A stretch of DNA of 64,000 bases, taken from a virus (taxonomy: Duplodnaviria; Caudoviricetes). The notes under the pieces were generated by a model that saw only the letters and a program-made list of their open reading frames with translations, was not told the origin of the DNA and made no database searches. Shown here piece by piece: positions 22,287 to 60,673 of this stretch. Each line of letters opens with the position of its first letter. Positions within the stretch are counted from its first letter, which is position 1. The translations under genes were made by a program, and so were the position numbers. The DNA is taken from positions 1 through 64,000 of the IMG/VR virus record IMGVR_UViG_3300027969_004220; one strand, written 5' to 3'.

Positions 22287-22380
22287 AAAAATTAGGTAGA
22301 TAAGTAAACTTTTATTACTTTTGTACTATAAAAATAACAAAAACACAAAAAGAGAGAATAAACTTTTAATATATAATAAC
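22287..22380 (+). repeat. Duplicated promoter block for tRNA operons, copy 1 (copy 2 at about 57533-57626)
   Basis: AAATTAGGTAGATAAGTAAACTTTTATTACTTTTGTACTATAAAAATAACAA...AAAAAGAGAGAATAAACTTTTAATATATA is near-identical at both sites. Confidence 0.85.
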
Positions 22381-22381
22381 A

Positions 22382-22492
22382 ATGAGAACAAATTCAATAC
22401 ATACAAGCTTTAGTAAGTCGTTCAAGTGGTTTAGCCACAAGTTCGGATGTATGAGTATGTCGTTCTCAAAAGAAGATGTTATTTTAGGATAA
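22382..22492 (+). CDS. Attenuator leader peptide 1 (Phe/Lys/Trp/His-rich)
   Basis: MRTNSIHTSFSKSFKWFSHKFGCMSMSFSKEDVILG; precedes a terminator and Lys/Trp/His/Phe tRNAs. Confidence 0.8.
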   Translation: MRTNSIHTSFSKSFKWFSHKFGCMSMSFSKEDVILG

Positions 22493-22521
22493 TGTCATAA
22501 AAGAGAATAAAACATAAACGT

Positions 22522-22554
22522 AAACCCGAACTAAAAAATTAGTTCGGGTTTTTT
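22522..22554 (+). terminator. Attenuator terminator 1
   Basis: AAACCCGAACTAA-aaaa-TTAGTTCGGGTTT plus T-run. Confidence 0.9.
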
Positions 22555-22563
22555 ATTTTATAA

Positions 22564-22649
22564 TCCCTCTTAGCTCAGTTGGTTTGCATTATGCTTAGAG
22601 CAATCGTCTTTTAAACGATGGGTCACAGGTTCGAATCCTGTAGGGGGAA
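22564..22649 (+). tRNA. trnK: tRNA-Lys(UUU) with enlarged D-loop
   Basis: Anticodon arm ATCGT-CTTTTAA-ACGAT; T-loop TTCGAAT; GCA-TTA-TGC insertion in the D-loop. Confidence 0.85.
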
Positions 22650-22658
22650 CTAAAAAAT

Positions 22659-22729
22659 ACGGGTTACTGACAAGGTGTCGGGCAGGTCTCCAAAACCTCG
22701 CTGGGTAGGTTCGATCCCTACAACTCGTG
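22659..22729 (+). tRNA. trnW: tRNA-Trp(CCA), minimal D-arm
   Basis: AGGT-CTCCAAA-ACCT; acceptor ACGGGTT/AACTCGT; G73. Confidence 0.8.
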
Positions 22730-22738
22730 CTAGAATAT

Positions 22739-22813
22739 GGTGATTGTCTTCTAAAGGTTAGGATACCTCCCTGTGAAGGAGGTGGTGCGGTCTCGGGATC
22801 CGTCTTTCACCCA
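22739..22813 (+). tRNA. trnH: tRNA-His(GUG), deviant T-loop and acceptor stem
   Basis: CCTCC-CTGTGAA-GGAGG; G-1 and encoded CCA. Confidence 0.75.
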
Positions 22814-22818
22814 AATAT

Positions 22819-22890
22819 TCCCTCGTAGCAAACTGGTGTAGGCAATAAGCTTTTAACTTATGGGGCTGGGTTCGACTCCCGGCGGGGGAA
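22819..22890 (+). tRNA. trnK: tRNA-Lys(UUU)
   Basis: ATAAG-CTTTTAA-CTTAT; acceptor TCCCTCG/CGGGGGA. Confidence 0.85.
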
Positions 22891-22896
22891 CAAAAA

Positions 22897-22968
22897 GGAG
22901 AGGTAGCTCAGAGGTAGAGCACTGTGTTGAAGCCGCAGGTGTCGTGGGTTCGATCCCCACTCTCTCCA
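22897..22968 (+). tRNA. trnF: tRNA-Phe(GAA)
   Basis: CTGTG-TTGAAGC-CGCAG; canonical D and T arms. Confidence 0.85.
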
Positions 22969-22970
22969 CT

Positions 22971-23045
22971 GTGTAGGTCATCCAAAGGTTTAGGATACGT
23001 TCCTGTGAAGAACGAAATGCGGTTTCGAGATCCGTCTTACACCCA
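22971..23045 (+). tRNA. trnH: tRNA-His(GUG)
   Basis: CGTTC-CTGTGAA-GAACG; acceptor GTGTAGG/CTTACAC. Confidence 0.8.
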
Positions 23046-23100
23046 AATTAAAAGGTAGAAGGGTTATTTTAATATATACTATAAAAAATAAAAACATAGT

Positions 23101-23949
23101 ATGGGTTCAAATAACTGGTCGAGAAATGAGGAAGAATTATTAAAGGAAAATTATGGAAAATTAGGTGCAGAAAAGTGTAGTATTTTATTAGGTAGAACTA
23201 AAAGAGCATGTCAGATACGTGCAAAAAAATTGTTACTAAAATATGTAGATGATAGATATAATAAAATCAATTTATTAGAAATTGTAAAAGATTCTAAAAC
23301 AAAATCTGAATGTTTACGTAGATTAAATTTATCAACCAATGCAGGAAATTTTGATACACTTAACAGATATATTAAAAAATATGAAATAGATATATCACAT
23401 TTTGAATGTGTCACAGATGGATTAAAAATTTATGTTTCGAGTATAACAATCCCAATAAAAGATATATTGATAGAAAACTCTACATATAGTAGTACAAATC
23501 ATTTAAAAAAAAGATTATATAAAGAAGATTTAAAACAAAGAAGATGTGAATTATGTAACCAGGGAGAAGATTGGATGGGTAAAAAAATGAGTCTAATTTT
23601 AGATCATATAAATGGAGTAAATAATGATAATAGATTAGAAAATTTAAGAATTGTTTGTCCTAATTGTAATGCAACATTAGATACACATTGTAGAGGAACT
23701 AGAATAACAAAAGAAATAGAGAATAAAGATCATTGTAAATGTGGTGGTAGTAAATGGAAAACAAGTAAATCTTGTGTAGATTGTAGTAAAAAATTACAAA
23801 GAAAAGTTGAAAGACCTTCATTAGAACAAATTTTAGAAGATATAAAAGAAACAAACTATGTCTTAACCGGTAAAAAATATGGTGTTAGTGATAACACTAT
23901 AAGAAAGTGGATAAGACAATATAATGCGGATTTAGCTGAGACGGTTTAG
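23101..23949 (+). CDS. HNH homing endonuclease inside tRNA operon 1
   Basis: CELC...LDHINGVNNDNRLENLRIVCPNCN; its 3' end overlaps tRNA-Phe. Confidence 0.85.
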   Translation: MGSNNWSRNEEELLKENYGKLGAEKCSILLGRTKRACQIRAKKLLLKYVDDRYNKINLLEIVKDSKTKSECLRRLNLSTNAGNFDTLNRYIKKYEIDISHFECVTDGLKIYVSSITIPIKDILIENSTYSSTNHLKKRLYKEDLKQRRCELCNQGEDWMGKKMSLILDHINGVNNDNRLENLRIVCPNCNATLDTHCRGTRITKEIENKDHCKCGGSKWKTSKSCVDCSKKLQRKVERPSLEQILEDIKETNYVLTGKKYGVSDNTIRKWIRQYNADLAETV

Positions 23950-23997
23950 CGTATGGTTGAAAGCCATAAGAGGTCGATTCGATTTCGACAATCCGCA
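23926..23997 (+). tRNA. trnF: tRNA-Phe(GAA)
   Basis: TATGG-TTGAAAG-CCATA; acceptor GCGGATT/AATCCGC. Confidence 0.85.
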
Positions 23998-24001
23998 CAA
24001 A

Positions 24002-59225: not shown

Positions 59226-59349
59226 CAAAAAAAATAAAATAATAATTATGAAAATGAAAGAGAATTTATTAAATAGTTCGGTTAGTAGTTAAAAAAAGTG
59301 ATAAAAGTGAGTTATAATTTTTTATATATACAATAAATAAAAAACTATA

Positions 59350-59886
59350 ATGGAAAAAGATAAAATGATAGAACTAATCGAGTTAGGTTACTCACAAAGG
59401 AATCTTGCGGAAGAACTAAAAACATCACAATCTAATGTTAAATATTGGTTAAAAAAATTTGAAATAAGTACAAAATATAAAAAAAATAATATAGATAAAC
59501 ATATAATTGATGGTGGTAAAAATTGTCCTAAATGTAATGAGTTAAAAGATGTGGATGACTTTTATAAAAGAAGTAGTATAAATAGAAACGGAACCGCGGG
59601 TTATTGTAAAAAATGTAGTAATATTTATCATGGTGCTAGATTAAAGAAAGTTAAATTAAAAATGATTTTATATAAAGGTGGTAAATGTTGTGATTGTGAA
59701 CTAAACCATGAAAATACACACTATTGTGTTTTTGATTTTCATCACTTAGATCCAAATACTAAAGACCCAAACTTTAATAAAATTAAATATCAAAAATGGG
59801 AAAAAATTAAAGAAGAAATTGATAAATGTGTATTATTGTGTGCGAATTGTCACCGTTTAAGACACTCTGTTATCAGTGGATGGTAA
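59350..59886 (+). CDS. HNH homing endonuclease inside tRNA operon 5
   Basis: CPKC..CKKC; KGGKC.DC...FDFHHLDP...KCVLLCANCHRLRH. Confidence 0.85.
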   Translation: MEKDKMIELIELGYSQRNLAEELKTSQSNVKYWLKKFEISTKYKKNNIDKHIIDGGKNCPKCNELKDVDDFYKRSSINRNGTAGYCKKCSNIYHGARLKKVKLKMILYKGGKCCDCELNHENTHYCVFDFHHLDPNTKDPNFNKIKYQKWEKIKEEIDKCVLLCANCHRLRHSVISGW

Positions 59887-59898
59887 ATAAATAAAAAT

Positions 59899-59981
59899 AG
59901 GTCTATGGTGTAATGGCAACATCCTTCTTTTACATGGAAGAGACGTGAAGTATAATCTCGGTTCGAGTCCGAGTAGACCTA
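59899..59981 (+). tRNA. trnV: tRNA-Val(UAC) with enlarged variable region
   Basis: CTTCT-TTTACAT-GGAAG; 16-nt variable region. Confidence 0.7.
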
Positions 59982-59987
59982 CATAAT

Positions 59988-60063
59988 GGTTCCTTAGCTC
60001 AGTTGGTTCAGTAGCGTCTGTTTTACACGCAGAAGGTCATAGGTTCGAATCCTATAGGAATCA
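59988..60063 (+). tRNA. trnV: tRNA-Val(UAC)
   Basis: TCTGT-TTTACAC-GCAGA. Confidence 0.88.
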
Positions 60064-60069
60064 CAATAT

Positions 60070-60143
60070 TGGTAGTTAGCTCAACTGGTTAGAGCACTTC
60101 GCTGATACCGAAGAGGTTATGGGTTCGACTCCCTTACTACCAA
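60070..60143 (+). tRNA. trnI: tRNA-Ile(GAU)
   Basis: CTTCG-CTGATAC-CGAAG. Confidence 0.88.
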
Positions 60144-60151
60144 CAAAAAAT

Positions 60152-60239
60152 GGCATAGTGTCTGAGTGGTCGAAAGATGCGGTCTGCAAAACCGTAATGA
60201 TTAAGTTCATCATCGTAGGTTCAAATCCTACCTATGCTT
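60152..60239 (+). tRNA. trnC: tRNA-Cys(GCA) with long variable arm
   Basis: GCGGT-CTGCAAA-ACCGT; extra arm TGAT...ATCA; U73. Confidence 0.8.
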
Positions 60240-60245
60240 CTAAAT

Positions 60246-60325
60246 GGTTGGTCACTGTAAATGGCTTCACAGTGGGACGGTACGTGGAATTTATTCCTAA
60301 GTGGGTTCGAGACCCACATCAACCT
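60246..60325 (+). ncRNA. tRNA-like RNA lacking a canonical anticodon arm
   Basis: Acceptor GGTTGGT/ATCAACC plus U; T-arm GTGGG-TTCGAGA-CCCAC; 6-bp CACTGT/ACAGTG arm; two tiny hairpins where the anticodon arm should be. Confidence 0.55.
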
Positions 60326-60332
60326 CAATAAT

Positions 60333-60406
60333 GGCGCGGTGGCCGAGTGGCACGTAGGCGGTGGATTGCAAACTCACACACACTGGTTCGAATCCAGTCC
60401 GCGCCT
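60333..60406 (+). tRNA. trnC: tRNA-Cys(GCA)
   Basis: TTGCAAA loop; GGCGCGG/CCGCGCC; U73. Confidence 0.85.
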
Positions 60407-60473
60407 CGAGACGAGACTGTTACTAATTCATAGGGGCCCATACGATGTAAGTGTCTGCGTAGAATTAGAAAAT

Positions 60474-60546
60474 GCCGATATAGCTCAATAGGTAGAGTGC
60501 CAACTTGGTAGGTTGGAGGTTAAGGGTTCGATTCCCTTTATCGGAT
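60474..60546 (+). tRNA. trnT: tRNA-Thr(GGU)
   Basis: CCAAC-TTGGTAG-GTTGG; G1:A72 mismatch. Confidence 0.8.
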
Positions 60547-60554
60547 CAAATAAT

Positions 60555-60635
60555 GCTGGTGTTGCGTAGTGGCCGATCGCACCTACCTTGTAAGTAGGAA
60601 TTCCAACGTCGCAGGTTCGAATCCTGTCACTAGCT
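60555..60635 (+). tRNA. trnT: tRNA-Thr(UGU), enlarged variable region
   Basis: CCTAC-CTTGTAA-GTAGG. Confidence 0.82.
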
Positions 60636-60640
60636 CGACA

Positions 60641-60673
60641 AAAAAGACTTCTTTTAATTAAGAAGTCTTTTTT
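60641..60673 (+). terminator. Terminator closing tRNA operon 5
   Basis: AAAAAGACTTCTT-ttaatt-AAGAAGTCTTTTT. Confidence 0.85.

Follow-up and report, generated by a model that had tools for sequence, protein, structure and literature searches.

What are short open reading frames and strong terminators doing in front of the tRNA genes of a lake phage? The locus raises this question five times within the window, that is, the whole 64,000-nt stretch analysed here, which belongs to a 105.6-kb contig. We consider it likely, judging from sequence comparisons, that these elements are ribosome-mediated (leader-peptide) transcription attenuators controlling the tRNA genes, through which each tRNA set would probably be made only when ribosomes run short of it. 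The logic is that of trp/his/ilv-type attenuation, here applied to phage tRNA genes; we found no description of leader-peptide attenuation of phage tRNA operons in the literature.

Layout of the tRNA units

The ATGs at 22382, 24177, 39222, 57627 and 58803, put forward as leader starts in the initial annotation, were all confirmed to open ORFs (36, 25, 33, 34 and 29 codons, respectively, with a common M-R/K/T-T start), each having downstream a strong intrinsic terminator and, beyond it, tRNA genes. In all five window units, the leader stop lies 20-29 nt ahead of a hairpin (-14 to -19 kcal/mol) with a U-tract, and the first tRNA gene begins 8-22 nt after the terminator end. The terminators of leaders 1-3 were also the top matches of a separate terminator scan. 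The features are as follows.

22316..22323 (+): host-type promoter box (-7 element type), operon 1; starts 66 nt upstream of the leader ATG
22365..22375 (+): 11-nt promoter-like motif directly before leader 1; further copies at 24160, 38906, 57611 and 58787
22382..22492 (+): leader ORF 1, 36 codons, rich in Lys, Phe, His, Trp and Ser
22439..22447 (+): candidate antiterminator segment, leader 1, codons 20-22; duplex of -11.2 kcal/mol with the terminator 5' arm
22522..22551 (+): intrinsic terminator 1, 13-bp stem, -17 kcal/mol, U-tract
22562..24133 (+): tRNA operon 1 (ARAGORN, Infernal): Lys, Trp, His, Lys, Phe, His, ORF, Phe, Asn
24177..24254 (+): leader ORF 2, 25 codons, with nine Ser and two Arg
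24275..24306 (+): intrinsic terminator 2, 14-bp stem, -18.6 kcal/mol
24319..24760 (+): tRNA operon 2: Arg(ACG), Ser(UGA) x2, Ser(GGA), Ser(GCU)
38933..39125 (+): two tRNA-Met genes, no leader, no terminator
39222..39323 (+): leader ORF 3, 33 codons, rich in Ile (mostly ATA), Ala, Gly, Glu and Tyr
39351..39384 (+): intrinsic terminator 3, 13-bp stem, -17.8 kcal/mol
39403..41255 (+): tRNA operon 3: first Tyr, Glu, Tyr, Glu, unknown 234-nt RNA, Glu; then Ile(UAU), Gly, ORF, Gly, odd tRNA-like pieces, Ala
57562..57569 (+): host-type promoter box, operon 4
57627..57731 (+): leader ORF 4, 34 codons, with six Leu and three Arg (AGA)
57687..57696 (+): candidate antiterminator segment, leader 4, codons 21-24; -11.5 kcal/mol
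57760..57789 (+): intrinsic terminator 4, -14.2 kcal/mol
57812..58697 (+): tRNA operon 4: Arg(UCU), Leu(UAA) x2, Arg(UCU)-like gene, Leu(AAG), small ORF, Leu(CAA), Leu(UAG)
58741..58748 (+): host-type promoter box, operon 5
58803..58892 (+): leader ORF 5, 29 codons
58864..58872 (+): candidate antiterminator segment, leader 5, codons 21-24; -11.1 kcal/mol
58920..58950 (+): intrinsic terminator 5, -14.3 kcal/mol
58971..60636 (+): tRNA operon 5: Asn x2, Ile(GAU), ORF, Val x2, Ile(GAU), Cys, tRNA-like piece, Cys, conserved spacer element, Thr x2

Some of these tRNA assignments depend on relaxed ARAGORN settings or manual reading, as do the anticodons of the non-canonical tRNAs at 22564, 22659 and 22740. 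The tRNA at 24002 in operon 1 is Asn after correction and carries a 58-nt insert; once it is read in this way, the two Met codons in leader 1 are left without a downstream Met tRNA. The ORF within operon 1 gives weak HNH matches, under the Pfam cut-offs, and the one within operon 3 a weak GIY-YIG match.

Two kinds of promoter-like element accompany the units. The box that we take, from its consensus, to be of the host type (-7 element type) lies 62-66 nt upstream of leaders 1, 4, 5 and 6, and no such box was found upstream of leader 2; hence, of the shared promoter-leader-terminator-tRNA layout ascribed to all five units, the leader, terminator and tRNAs hold throughout while the host-type promoter fails for leader 2. 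The 11-nt motif, of phage-type promoter-like appearance, occurs in 20 copies in the contig versus 2.2 expected; its + strand copies stand 5-22 nt before the ATGs of leaders and other genes, and before the leaders it ends 5-6 nt from the ATG. Any transcript from this motif could be leaderless, with a different behaviour.

A motif-free scan of the whole contig on both strands, in which an ORF of 15-45 codons had to be followed by a terminator and then by a tRNA, recovered the five window units, a sixth at 67529 and none other; ORF, terminator and tRNAs are present in 6/6 units of the contig. This last unit (67529-68540, outside the window) is an Asp/Gln/Pro operon with its own leader, the very sixth operon that had been predicted to exist elsewhere, and the same design recurs in 24 related IMG/VR contigs. 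Under the attenuation reading, the genetic code is split over six gates in this phage. The Met/fMet pair, described earlier as having no leader, indeed has none and lacks a terminator too, though a promoter-like box is found 83 nt upstream.

Leader codons and downstream tRNAs

Leaders had been described as enriched in the amino acids of their own downstream tRNAs. With ARAGORN default tRNAs only, 78/183 leader codons match their own operon, and the true pairing of leaders with operons is the unique best of 720 (mean 33.7, best derangement 44). When the non-canonical tRNAs are added and 24002 is read as Asn, the match rises to 82/183, again the unique best, with the runner-up pairing at 71. The individual contributions are 13/35 codons in leader 1 (Lys, Phe, His, Trp, Asn), 11/24 in leader 2 (binomial p 2e-5), 17/32 in leader 3 and 9/33 in leader 4, and Asn, Ile, Val, Cys or Thr take up 22/28 codons of leader 5 (binomial p 1e-7). 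Non-matching codons are also many, as in the Asn/Thr-rich starts common to paralogues.

The correspondence extends to isoacceptors, as had also been claimed. The Arg codon within the Ser run of leader 2 is CGC, ahead of tRNA-Arg(ACG), and this codon makes up about 0% of Arg codons in the long ORFs of the phage; three AGA codons in leader 4 precede tRNA-Arg(UCU). Ile is ATA in 5/7 codons ahead of tRNA-Ile(UAU) and ATT in 3/4 ahead of tRNA-Ile(GAU). A GC3 of 0.36 versus 0.30, with 0.12 in the proteome, marks rare GC3-rich codons as a trait of whole leaders and not of control codons.

The family set comprises 45 distinct leaders from 55 units in the 24 related contigs and this one. All 20 amino acids are commoner in leaders whose operon has the tRNA in question, with ratios of 1.6 to 13.1, the largest (5 to 13) belonging to the rare amino acids Gln, Pro, Trp, His, Tyr and Ala. 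When the test of leader codons versus anticodons proposed in the initial annotation was applied to these relatives, 581/1346 codons matched, versus a mean of 269 and a maximum of 378 for shuffled pairings (0/20000 reached the observed value); for the 28 leaders less than 60% identical to any leader here, the figures were 331/822, 150 and 230 (0/20000). As leaders share descent, these family-wide p-values overstate independence, the independent events being a handful of splits and mergers. Arg codon choice follows the anticodon (CGN:AGR 8:5 vs 4:19, p 0.011), CGC being the Arg codon within the Ser run in 6/6 distinct Arg(ACG)/Ser leaders, and so does Ile codon choice (ATA:ATT/ATC 23:9 vs 4:14, p 0.001).

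Where operons have been split or merged, in at least three ways among the relatives, leader composition has kept track of their content. In front of Gln-only operons, Gln fills 5/15 and 6/18 leader codons, and the sister Asp/Pro operons have Asp/Pro-rich leaders; a Tyr/Glu/Tyr operon follows a leader with three Tyr and two Glu consecutively, Ile(UAU)/Gly/Ala operons follow leaders rich in Ile/Ala/Gly, and merged Asn/Leu/Arg/Val/Cys/Thr(/Met) operons carry merged leaders. In one relative (contig G001), all four gated clusters fit the codon-tRNA pattern. The parts and their order, like the codon-to-tRNA match and the way it co-varies in relatives, are matters of direct observation.

Antiterminator pairing and the proposed switch

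In the attenuation model, which presupposes a host that couples transcription with translation, transcription would start about 65 nt ahead of each leader, at the host-type promoter, and a ribosome would translate the leader, of which codons ~6-21 are mostly those read by the tRNAs encoded downstream. With fast decoding, the ribosome would cover the next segment (codons ~19-30), otherwise able to pair with the terminator 5' arm; the terminator would then form and transcription would end before the tRNA genes. Should any matching charged tRNA be scarce, the ribosome would stall upstream, the free segment would pair with the terminator 5' arm and RNA polymerase would read through into the tRNA genes. 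Leader translation, the direction of the switch and its physiological trigger are what we infer here; if the model is true, it amounts to a negative feedback loop holding the supply of each tRNA group to demand. Host anticodon nucleases, one of the triggers suggested in the initial annotation, find no particular support in the sequence over any other shortage of charged tRNA. Attenuation gained support in that the in silico checks (frame, position, co-variation, antiterminators tracking terminators, sixth leader) all went as predicted.

A segment complementary to the terminator 5' arm had been attributed to every leader. This stands for leaders 1, 4 and 5, where complementarity beats shuffles (p 0.02, 0.001 and 0.004; equalled by 20/1000, 1/1000 and 4/1000 shuffles, and by 8/400, 0/400 and 0/400, the leader 1 shuffles being dinucleotide ones), and not for leaders 2 and 3, where it is no better than shuffles (p about 0.5-0.6). 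Family-wide, 27/45 leaders have a significant antiterminator (p <= 0.05, dinucleotide shuffles; median p 0.015), which in every case lies in the 3' portion of the ORF. The segments differ where the terminators differ, and for each of three Asn-type terminator variants 0/400 shuffles are as good. The test found a significant antiterminator in 0/4 Tyr/Glu/Ile/Gly/Ala-type leaders and was failed by 5/6 Arg/Ser-type leaders; in the Asp/Gln/Pro unit of one relative, the terminator has been replaced and shows no complementarity (395/400 shuffles as good).

Folding with a masked ribosome footprint in an equilibrium model gave a terminator 5' arm that is sequestered (0.5-0.8) with the A site at or before about codon 17, and free (0-0.3) while the ribosome covers codons ~17-27. 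Leaders 1 and 4 regain a free segment when the ribosome sits at the stop codon. Classical three-state behaviour was obtained for leaders 5 and 6 only; in leaders 1-4, the antiterminator still forms without a ribosome (0.56-0.72), and their default state therefore hinges on kinetics.

Another explanation, drawing on the leaders that fail the complementarity test, is translation-dependent control without an antiterminator hairpin, acting through Rho access, RNA polymerase pausing or transcript stability on a leaky constitutive terminator, with the codon match tuning the effect. Leaders 2 and 3 and most relatives of both types lack a significant antiterminator, an alignment fold of the six Arg/Ser leaders revealed no shared alternative structure, and the narrow, conserved gap from leader stop to hairpin (14-33 nt, median 24 in the family) could matter for ribosome-polymerase contact. 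We nevertheless judge it unlikely, given that the 27 significant antiterminators co-vary and keep a conserved relative position; as for Rho, stalling would normally expose RNA to it and lower tRNA synthesis, a positive feedback on shortage that makes little sense.

Reading frame, leader evolution and apparent gates in series

The codon match is a property of one frame and one region. It is 0.43 in frame, whereas the other two frames give 0.20 and 0.18, and in 42/45 leaders the true frame scores highest; along the leader, a fraction of 0.5-0.78 matches at codons 6-21 and one of about 0.2 beyond codon 25, with 57% of codons matching upstream of the antiterminator segment versus 24% within or after it. 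This bears on direct T-box-like sensing, in which codons of the untranslated leader RNA would themselves capture uncharged tRNAs. A codon-bearing leader RNA ahead of a terminator that has an antiterminator would suit the T-box outline as well, but the signal is confined to a reading frame bounded by ATG and stop, the ORF start is conserved, each phage leader presents many different codons where a T-box has one specifier, and no T-box or other riboswitch match appeared even at E <= 1, all of which makes this mechanism very improbable.

Conservation of the ORFs in 24 related contigs could instead reflect functional micropeptides, in which case the terminators would simply delimit or insulate operons and the composition match would be incidental. 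In close relatives, however, the control block is nucleotide-identical and changes outside it are mostly non-synonymous (21 vs 4; 16 vs 3), a pattern at odds with the evolution of a functional peptide; between distant relatives the tails can no longer be aligned, and operon splits and mergers are accompanied by matching shifts in leader composition. Nor does a terminator make a boundary when it directly separates a promoter from the only genes available to it, and we give this explanation slightly less credence still than the previous one. Least probable of all is a chance or base-composition artefact, which is refuted by the pairing, shuffle, frame and rare-amino-acid controls, even though DNA of 29% GC abounds in Asn, Ile, Lys and Thr codons and several leaders give fairly high scores with the Asn/Ile/Val/Cys/Thr set.

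Within the attenuation model, leader 2 appears to be an internal gate, the second of two in series ahead of the Arg(ACG)/Ser operon, because it has no host-type box and lies behind the Lys/Phe/His/Trp operon, whose leader carries 8 Ser codons matching this promoter-less downstream operon. In the family, the box was found 40-90 nt upstream of 29/38 other leaders versus 0/6 Arg/Ser leaders. The next leader after the Lys/Phe/His/Trp operon is an Arg/Ser leader in 5/5 loci extending far enough, and the Ser fraction is 0.18 in Lys/Phe/His/Trp leaders versus 0.04 in other leaders without a Ser tRNA.

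Architecture of the tRNA clusters

The virus sequence is a single contig of 105,621 bp with 29% G+C, of which the window represents the first 64 kb. ARAGORN predicts 37 tRNA genes in the whole contig, 30 of which lie in the window, Infernal returns 33 tRNA matches in the window at the Rfam threshold, and looser settings add about 12 non-canonical tRNA-like genes. Together they form seven clusters, on the + strand throughout, six of which share a common build. In all six units, a predicted leader ORF of 25-36 codons is followed, 20-29 nt past its stop codon, by a hairpin of -14 to -19 kcal/mol with a U-tract, and the first tRNA gene lies 8-22 nt downstream of this terminator. 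The terminators of the first three leaders also take the top ranks in a separate terminator scan.

Leader ORFs and leaderless cluster
22382 (start), + strand: leader 1, predicted ORF ahead of Lys/Trp/His/Phe/Asn tRNAs (operon 1)
24177 (start), + strand: leader 2, predicted ORF ahead of Arg(ACG)/Ser tRNAs (operon 2)
39222 (start), + strand: leader 3, predicted ORF ahead of Tyr/Glu/Ile(UAU)/Gly/Ala tRNAs (operon 3)
57627 (start), + strand: leader 4, predicted ORF ahead of Arg(UCU)/Leu tRNAs (operon 4)
58803 (start), + strand: leader 5, predicted ORF ahead of Asn/Ile(GAU)/Val/Cys/Thr tRNAs (operon 5)
Contig 67529 (start; outside the window), + strand: leader 6, predicted ORF ahead of Asp/Gln/Pro tRNAs (operon 6)
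38933-39125, + strand: cluster of two tRNA-Met genes with a promoter-like box, without ORF or terminator

The initial annotation had described this build for five clusters and a tRNA-Met pair devoid of a leader, and both descriptions hold at all the positions concerned. Moreover, since Asp, Gln and Pro tRNAs are missing from the window, it had anticipated a sixth leader unit elsewhere. This unit exists beyond the window, at contig position 67529, where a leader with 4 Gln, 2 Pro, 2 Asp and 2 internal Met codons precedes Gln, Asp and Pro tRNAs and a Met-like tRNA. A motif-free scan of both strands of the whole contig for an ATG-initiated ORF of 15-45 codons followed by a terminator and a tRNA recovers the six leader units and nothing else.

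The non-canonical tRNA-like genes found by relaxed ARAGORN or Infernal searches have an enlarged D-loop, a missing or relocated D-arm, or unusual variable regions. Most are missed by default ARAGORN and score 28-38 bits with Infernal, and for most amino acids the same operon holds one canonical and one odd copy.

Non-canonical tRNA-like genes and ORFs within the tRNA operons
22564-22650: non-canonical tRNA-like gene
22740-22811: non-canonical tRNA-like gene
41033-41180: non-canonical tRNA-like gene
57901-57970: non-canonical tRNA-like gene
58075-58155: non-canonical tRNA-like gene
59145-59225: non-canonical tRNA-like gene
Contig 67786-67847: non-canonical tRNA-like gene
23101-23949: ORF with a weak HNH match, under the Pfam cut-off
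40254-40880: ORF with a weak GIY-YIG match, under the Pfam cut-off
59350-59886: ORF without a Pfam domain match

Two assignments made by relaxed ARAGORN were rejected. Positions 24002-24132 were called an intron-bearing tRNA-Met, yet excision of 24030-24087 leaves a canonical tRNA-Asn(GUU) that default ARAGORN recognizes, and we read this gene as tRNA-Asn(GUU) with a 58-nt insert. The first tRNA of operon 1, called Ile(UAU), is read instead as Lys(UUU) with an enlarged D-loop, as in the relatives. A clear GIY-YIG/NUMOD endonuclease is encoded at 15308-16009. In relatives, an ORF similar to those within the operons parts a leader-terminator from its tRNAs; the Asp/Gln/Pro cluster of the related contig G001 retains its leader and terminator, with an inserted endonuclease-like ORF between them and the tRNAs. 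Two further stretches lie among the tRNA genes. The first (39729-39962) separates two tRNA-Glu genes; it is 234 nt long, non-coding and richer in G+C, has no Rfam match at E <= 1, and its predicted fold reaches -60.4 kcal/mol, for which the z-score is only -1.6. The second is a conserved element of about 60 nt in the tRNA spacers of two operons (60405-60476 and contig 68074-68138, the latter also L001:1074-1138), consisting of two invariant blocks of 17-19 nt that flank a variable middle.

Codon content of the leaders and identity of the downstream tRNAs

The leaders had been claimed to be enriched in the amino acids of their own downstream tRNAs, and this claim was tested against swapped leader-operon pairings. 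With default ARAGORN tRNAs and start codons excluded, 78 of the 183 codons of the six leaders match their own operon, which makes the true pairing the unique best of 720 (mean 33.7; 44 for the top derangement, in which no leader is in place). Adding the non-canonical tRNAs and counting 24002-24132 as Asn raises the match to 82/183, again the unique best, with a runner-up of 71. Relative to the long ORFs of the phage, all six leaders are enriched for their own amino-acid sets, with binomial p-values from 1e-7 to 0.011, the value of leader 1 counting Met as own. The match between codons and tRNAs is real and far beyond chance.

The initial annotation had further suggested looking for the same build in related phages and had named a codon-anticodon correlation there as a test. 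Two IMG/VR motif scans and the tRNA regions of five fetched records provided a family in which leader-terminator-tRNA units occur in at least 24 further contigs, thereby giving, with this phage, at least 55 units and at least 45 distinct leader peptides. The loose motif scan gave, among the matches listed, 111 new loci, mostly chance matches, 23 of which carry two or more tRNAs; 15 of these 23 have leader-terminator-tRNA units, L068 has a terminator without an ORF, and no unit is found at the other seven (L042, L045, L079, L087, L124, L127 and L128). Two seeming extra leaders were dropped, namely short ORFs upstream of the final Thr tRNA in loci L030 and L035, which lie ahead of operon-end terminators. 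In the 45 distinct leaders among the matches listed, the correlation is evident: each of the 20 amino acids is commoner in leaders whose operon has its tRNA, with ratios from 1.6 (Thr) to 13.1 (Gln), and 581 of 1346 codons match their own operon, whereas shuffled pairings average 269 and peak at 378, with none of 20,000 reaching 581. Restricting the comparison to the 28 leaders that share under 60% identity with any of those in this phage gives a like result (331/822 matching; shuffles mean 150, max 230; 0/20000), although such family p-values overstate independence because the leaders are related by descent.

The weight of the family evidence rests on operon rearrangements. Two contigs have their Gln tRNAs in a separate operon whose leader has Gln at 5/15 and 6/18 codons, and the adjoining Asp/Pro operon has a leader rich in Asp and Pro. 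The Tyr/Glu/Ile/Gly/Ala set, a single operon in this phage, is spread over two operons in G001: the leader of the Tyr-Glu-Tyr operon contains three Tyr and two Glu codons consecutively, and that of the Ile(UAU)/Ala/Gly operon is rich in Ile, Ala and Gly. A third contig has an Ile/Gly/Ala operon on its own, with a fitting leader. Conversely, the Arg/Leu and Asn/Ile/Val/Cys/Thr sets are fused in six contigs into one operon with one leader, which combines Asn, Leu, Arg, Thr, Val, Ile and Cys codons, and Met too where Met tRNAs occur.

The correspondence extends to isoacceptors, as had also been proposed. The Arg codon within the Ser run is CGC in all six distinct Arg(ACG)/Ser leaders, while CGC accounts for about 0% of the Arg codons in long ORFs of the phage. 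With codon 2 omitted, the CGN:AGR ratio is 8:5 before Arg(ACG) and 4:19 before Arg(UCU) (Fisher p 0.011), and ATA:ATT/ATC is 23:9 before Ile(UAU) and 4:14 before Ile(GAU) (p 0.001). The signal is also bound to one reading frame, the matching fraction being 0.43 in frame versus 0.20 and 0.18 in the other frames, with the true frame on top in 42 of 45 leaders. Along the leaders, this fraction amounts to 0.5-0.78 at codons 6-21 and falls to about 0.2 past codon 25. Control codons are not specially rare codons, as non-control leader codons are nearly as GC3-rich and rare. A function of the encoded peptide itself is another conceivable reason for conservation. Between close relatives, the control block is nucleotide-identical, and the flanks differ by non-synonymous and synonymous changes in ratios of 21:4 (Arg/Leu type) and 16:3 (Asn type); flank changes that are mostly non-synonymous around an invariant control block argue against a functional peptide.

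Proposed terminator-antiterminator switch and putative promoters

According to the initial annotation, each leader contains a segment complementary to the 5' arm of its terminator. We compared the best duplex of the ORF region with this arm to dinucleotide shuffles of the ORF region, using duplex energies because an earlier test based on the longest exact match was confounded by A/U tracts. The claim stands for leaders 1, 4 and 5, as well as for leader 6 (p = 0.02, 0.001, 0.004 and 0.04 for leaders 1, 4, 5 and 6, respectively), and fails for leaders 2 and 3, whose complementarity is no better than that of shuffles (p about 0.6). Among the matches listed, 27 of 45 family leaders reach p <= 0.05, with a median p of 0.015. 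The candidate antiterminator segment is always located in the 3' part of the ORF, directly after the control block and 55-90 nt from the terminator; 57% of the codons upstream of it are matching versus 24% inside or downstream of it. Three distinct terminator stems occur in the Asn-type family, each matched by a different complementary segment for which 0/400 shuffles are as good, and the segment likewise varies with the terminator in the Lys-type and Asp-type families. Failures cluster by type: 0/4 Tyr/Glu/Ile/Gly/Ala-type leaders and only 1/6 Arg/Ser-type leaders pass the shuffle test, and an alignment fold of the six Arg/Ser leaders predicts no common alternative structure. In the Asp/Gln/Pro unit of one relative, the terminator is replaced and complementarity is absent.

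The effect of a ribosome was modelled by equilibrium folding of a transcript ending at the terminator loop, in which a footprint of 28 nt was masked. The modelled 5' arm is sequestered (0.5-0.8) when the A site is at or before approximately codon 17, and free (0-0.3) with the ribosome over codons 17-27. Without a ribosome, the equilibrium fold leaves the arm free only in leaders 5 and 6 (0.25-0.31), the antiterminator being favoured in leaders 1-4, whose arm is sequestered in this state as well. An anti-antiterminator or pause hairpin (segment 1:2), which in attenuators brings about termination when the leader is untranslated, is thus predicted for leaders 5 and 6 only. Since the other four leaders favour the antiterminator at equilibrium, the model implies that the termination decision would have to be kinetic.

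A TAnnTTTG box, which we take to be the -7 element of Bacteroidota promoters, starts 62-66 nt upstream of the ATG in leaders 1, 4, 5 and 6 and 46 nt upstream in leader 3; none was found before leader 2. It is solely from this assumed consensus that we infer a Bacteroidota host. Among the matches listed, the box occurs 40-90 nt upstream of 29/38 other family leaders and 0/6 Arg/Ser leaders. In 5/5 loci that extend far enough, the first leader to follow the Lys/Phe/His/Trp operon is the Arg/Ser leader, and Ser codons amount to 18% in Lys/Phe/His/Trp leaders versus 4% in the remaining leaders whose operons lack a Ser tRNA. Given the lack of a box, the fixed order and the Ser-rich preceding leaders, the Arg/Ser operon seems to be nested behind two gates: it would be fed by readthrough from the Lys/Phe/His/Trp operon, whose leader, as the first of two serial gates, would also sense Ser. 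A second promoter-like signal is an 11-nt motif present in 20 copies in the contig (22365-22375 and 19 more) versus 2.2 expected. Copies on the + strand precede ATGs, among them those of 5/6 leaders, by 5-22 nt and the first tRNA-Met gene by 16 nt, and the motif looks like a phage-specific promoter.

Known attenuators and possible role in the phage

Attenuators of amino-acid operons combine a translated leader, a terminator and an antiterminator pairing, with a stall at any control codon leading to readthrough. Besides trp, his, leu and pheA, enterobacteria have multivalent examples such as ilvGMEDA (Ile/Val/Leu) and thr (Thr/Ile). The phage units resemble the latter in having a short leader whose control codons stand for more than one amino acid, an intrinsic terminator ahead of the downstream genes and, in most leaders, an upstream segment that could pair with the 5' arm of the terminator. 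They differ in that ilvGMEDA- and thr-type attenuators control biosynthetic enzymes, whereas here the downstream genes are phage-encoded tRNAs, at least six putative gates share out all 20 amino acids with two apparently in series, the control codons are resolved to isoacceptors (CGC versus AGA, ATA versus ATT), and the spacing between segment and terminator is long (55-90 nt). In E. coli, pheST, which encodes phenylalanyl-tRNA synthetase, is attenuated through the pheM leader. This case parallels the scheme proposed here in that a component of the translation apparatus is attenuated with feedback via charged tRNA, but it is a host gene, its target is a synthetase and a single amino acid is sensed.

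As proposed for the phage units, T-box riboswitches couple a choice between terminator and antiterminator, made before translation-related genes, to the state of a specific tRNA; unlike the phage units, in which the signal is an ORF in one frame, they bind the tRNA directly and do not need translation. Neither the window nor the sixth unit matches the T-box model (specifier loop, T-box bulge) at E <= 1. No Rfam leader family reaches its gathering score in the window. The sub-threshold matches to His_leader (32.4 bits versus 49; 24195-24311) and Thr_leader (27.1 versus 55; 57710-57795) lie far below threshold and do not count as evidence, so the units are not members of these families.

Full-text literature searches returned no account of leader-peptide attenuation of tRNA genes, phage or cellular. 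The nearest published case among those found is the trn operon of Anabaena sp. PCC 7120, a supernumerary mobile tRNA array described as silent until translation is impaired (PMC8421152, PMC10272220). This operon resembles the phage clusters in being an extra tRNA operon kept off until translation is impaired, and differs in relying on promoter repression, with no codon-resolved sensing described: its control is ascribed to a promoter with direct repeats bound by the repressor TrcR, and the text available from PMC8421152 contains no occurrence of attenuat-, leader or terminator.

Three attenuator hallmarks that can be read from sequence, namely an ORF in the leader, operon-linked control codons and an intervening terminator, are present, and a candidate antiterminator occurs in most leaders but not in all. 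As a proposed mechanism, ribosome-mediated attenuation of the tRNA operons has strong support from comparative evidence. To our knowledge, it would be the first case in which leader-peptide attenuation controls tRNA genes.

Why phages carry tRNA genes, and how these are controlled, is debated; current proposals invoke compensation for codon usage, decay of host tRNAs and evasion of anticodon nucleases. Our tentative reading, which we would rate as possible rather than probable, is a codon-resolved tRNA supply: the genetic code would be split over at least six independently gated modules, at least one of them nested, each on only when its own codons slow ribosomes, so as to replace exactly the failing host tRNAs, with leaders and operons co-evolving as modules via splits and mergers. 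If so, a sensor of slowly decoded codons would let phage tRNAs be produced when needed instead of all the time, so that decoding speed feeds back on tRNA synthesis, and the tRNAs replaced would be those lost to host anticodon nucleases or host shut-off, or those demanded by the codons of a genome of 29% GC. It would also provide a direct testable readout, i.e., which depletion opens which gate. Leader composition is moreover of use in annotation, as it predicts the identity of the many downstream non-canonical tRNA-like genes missed by standard tools, and leader modules could become codon-specific translation-stress reporters.

A search for cultured relatives gave none: when 57400-60700 was compared by blastn with 50,697 phage records, the matches were tRNA-sized only, and no record covered 80% of the query. 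Lake and freshwater DNA metagenomes from 13 studies contain the window sequence, whereas RNA runs contain only small shares of it. The four metatranscriptome contig sets compared gave short pieces, mostly conserved tRNA parts of other organisms; the few that overlap leader regions belong to contigs without transcript ends, with DNA carry-over possible. CheckV estimates the related contigs to be 13-43% complete, and this contig may therefore be only part of a larger genome. Its other genes include a tyrosyl-tRNA synthetase (20090-21346; Pfam tRNA-synt_1b, 267 bits, plus an SYY C-terminal domain) 1 kb upstream of tRNA operon 1, an NAD-dependent DNA ligase, an rRNA-adenine-dimethylase-like methyltransferase and tail-spike-like proteins. 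Finally, at 49858-52786, a NUDIX protein adjoins a nicotinamide phosphoribosyltransferase (NAMPT) in what looks like an NAD salvage pair, of a type discussed as a counter to NAD-depleting defence.
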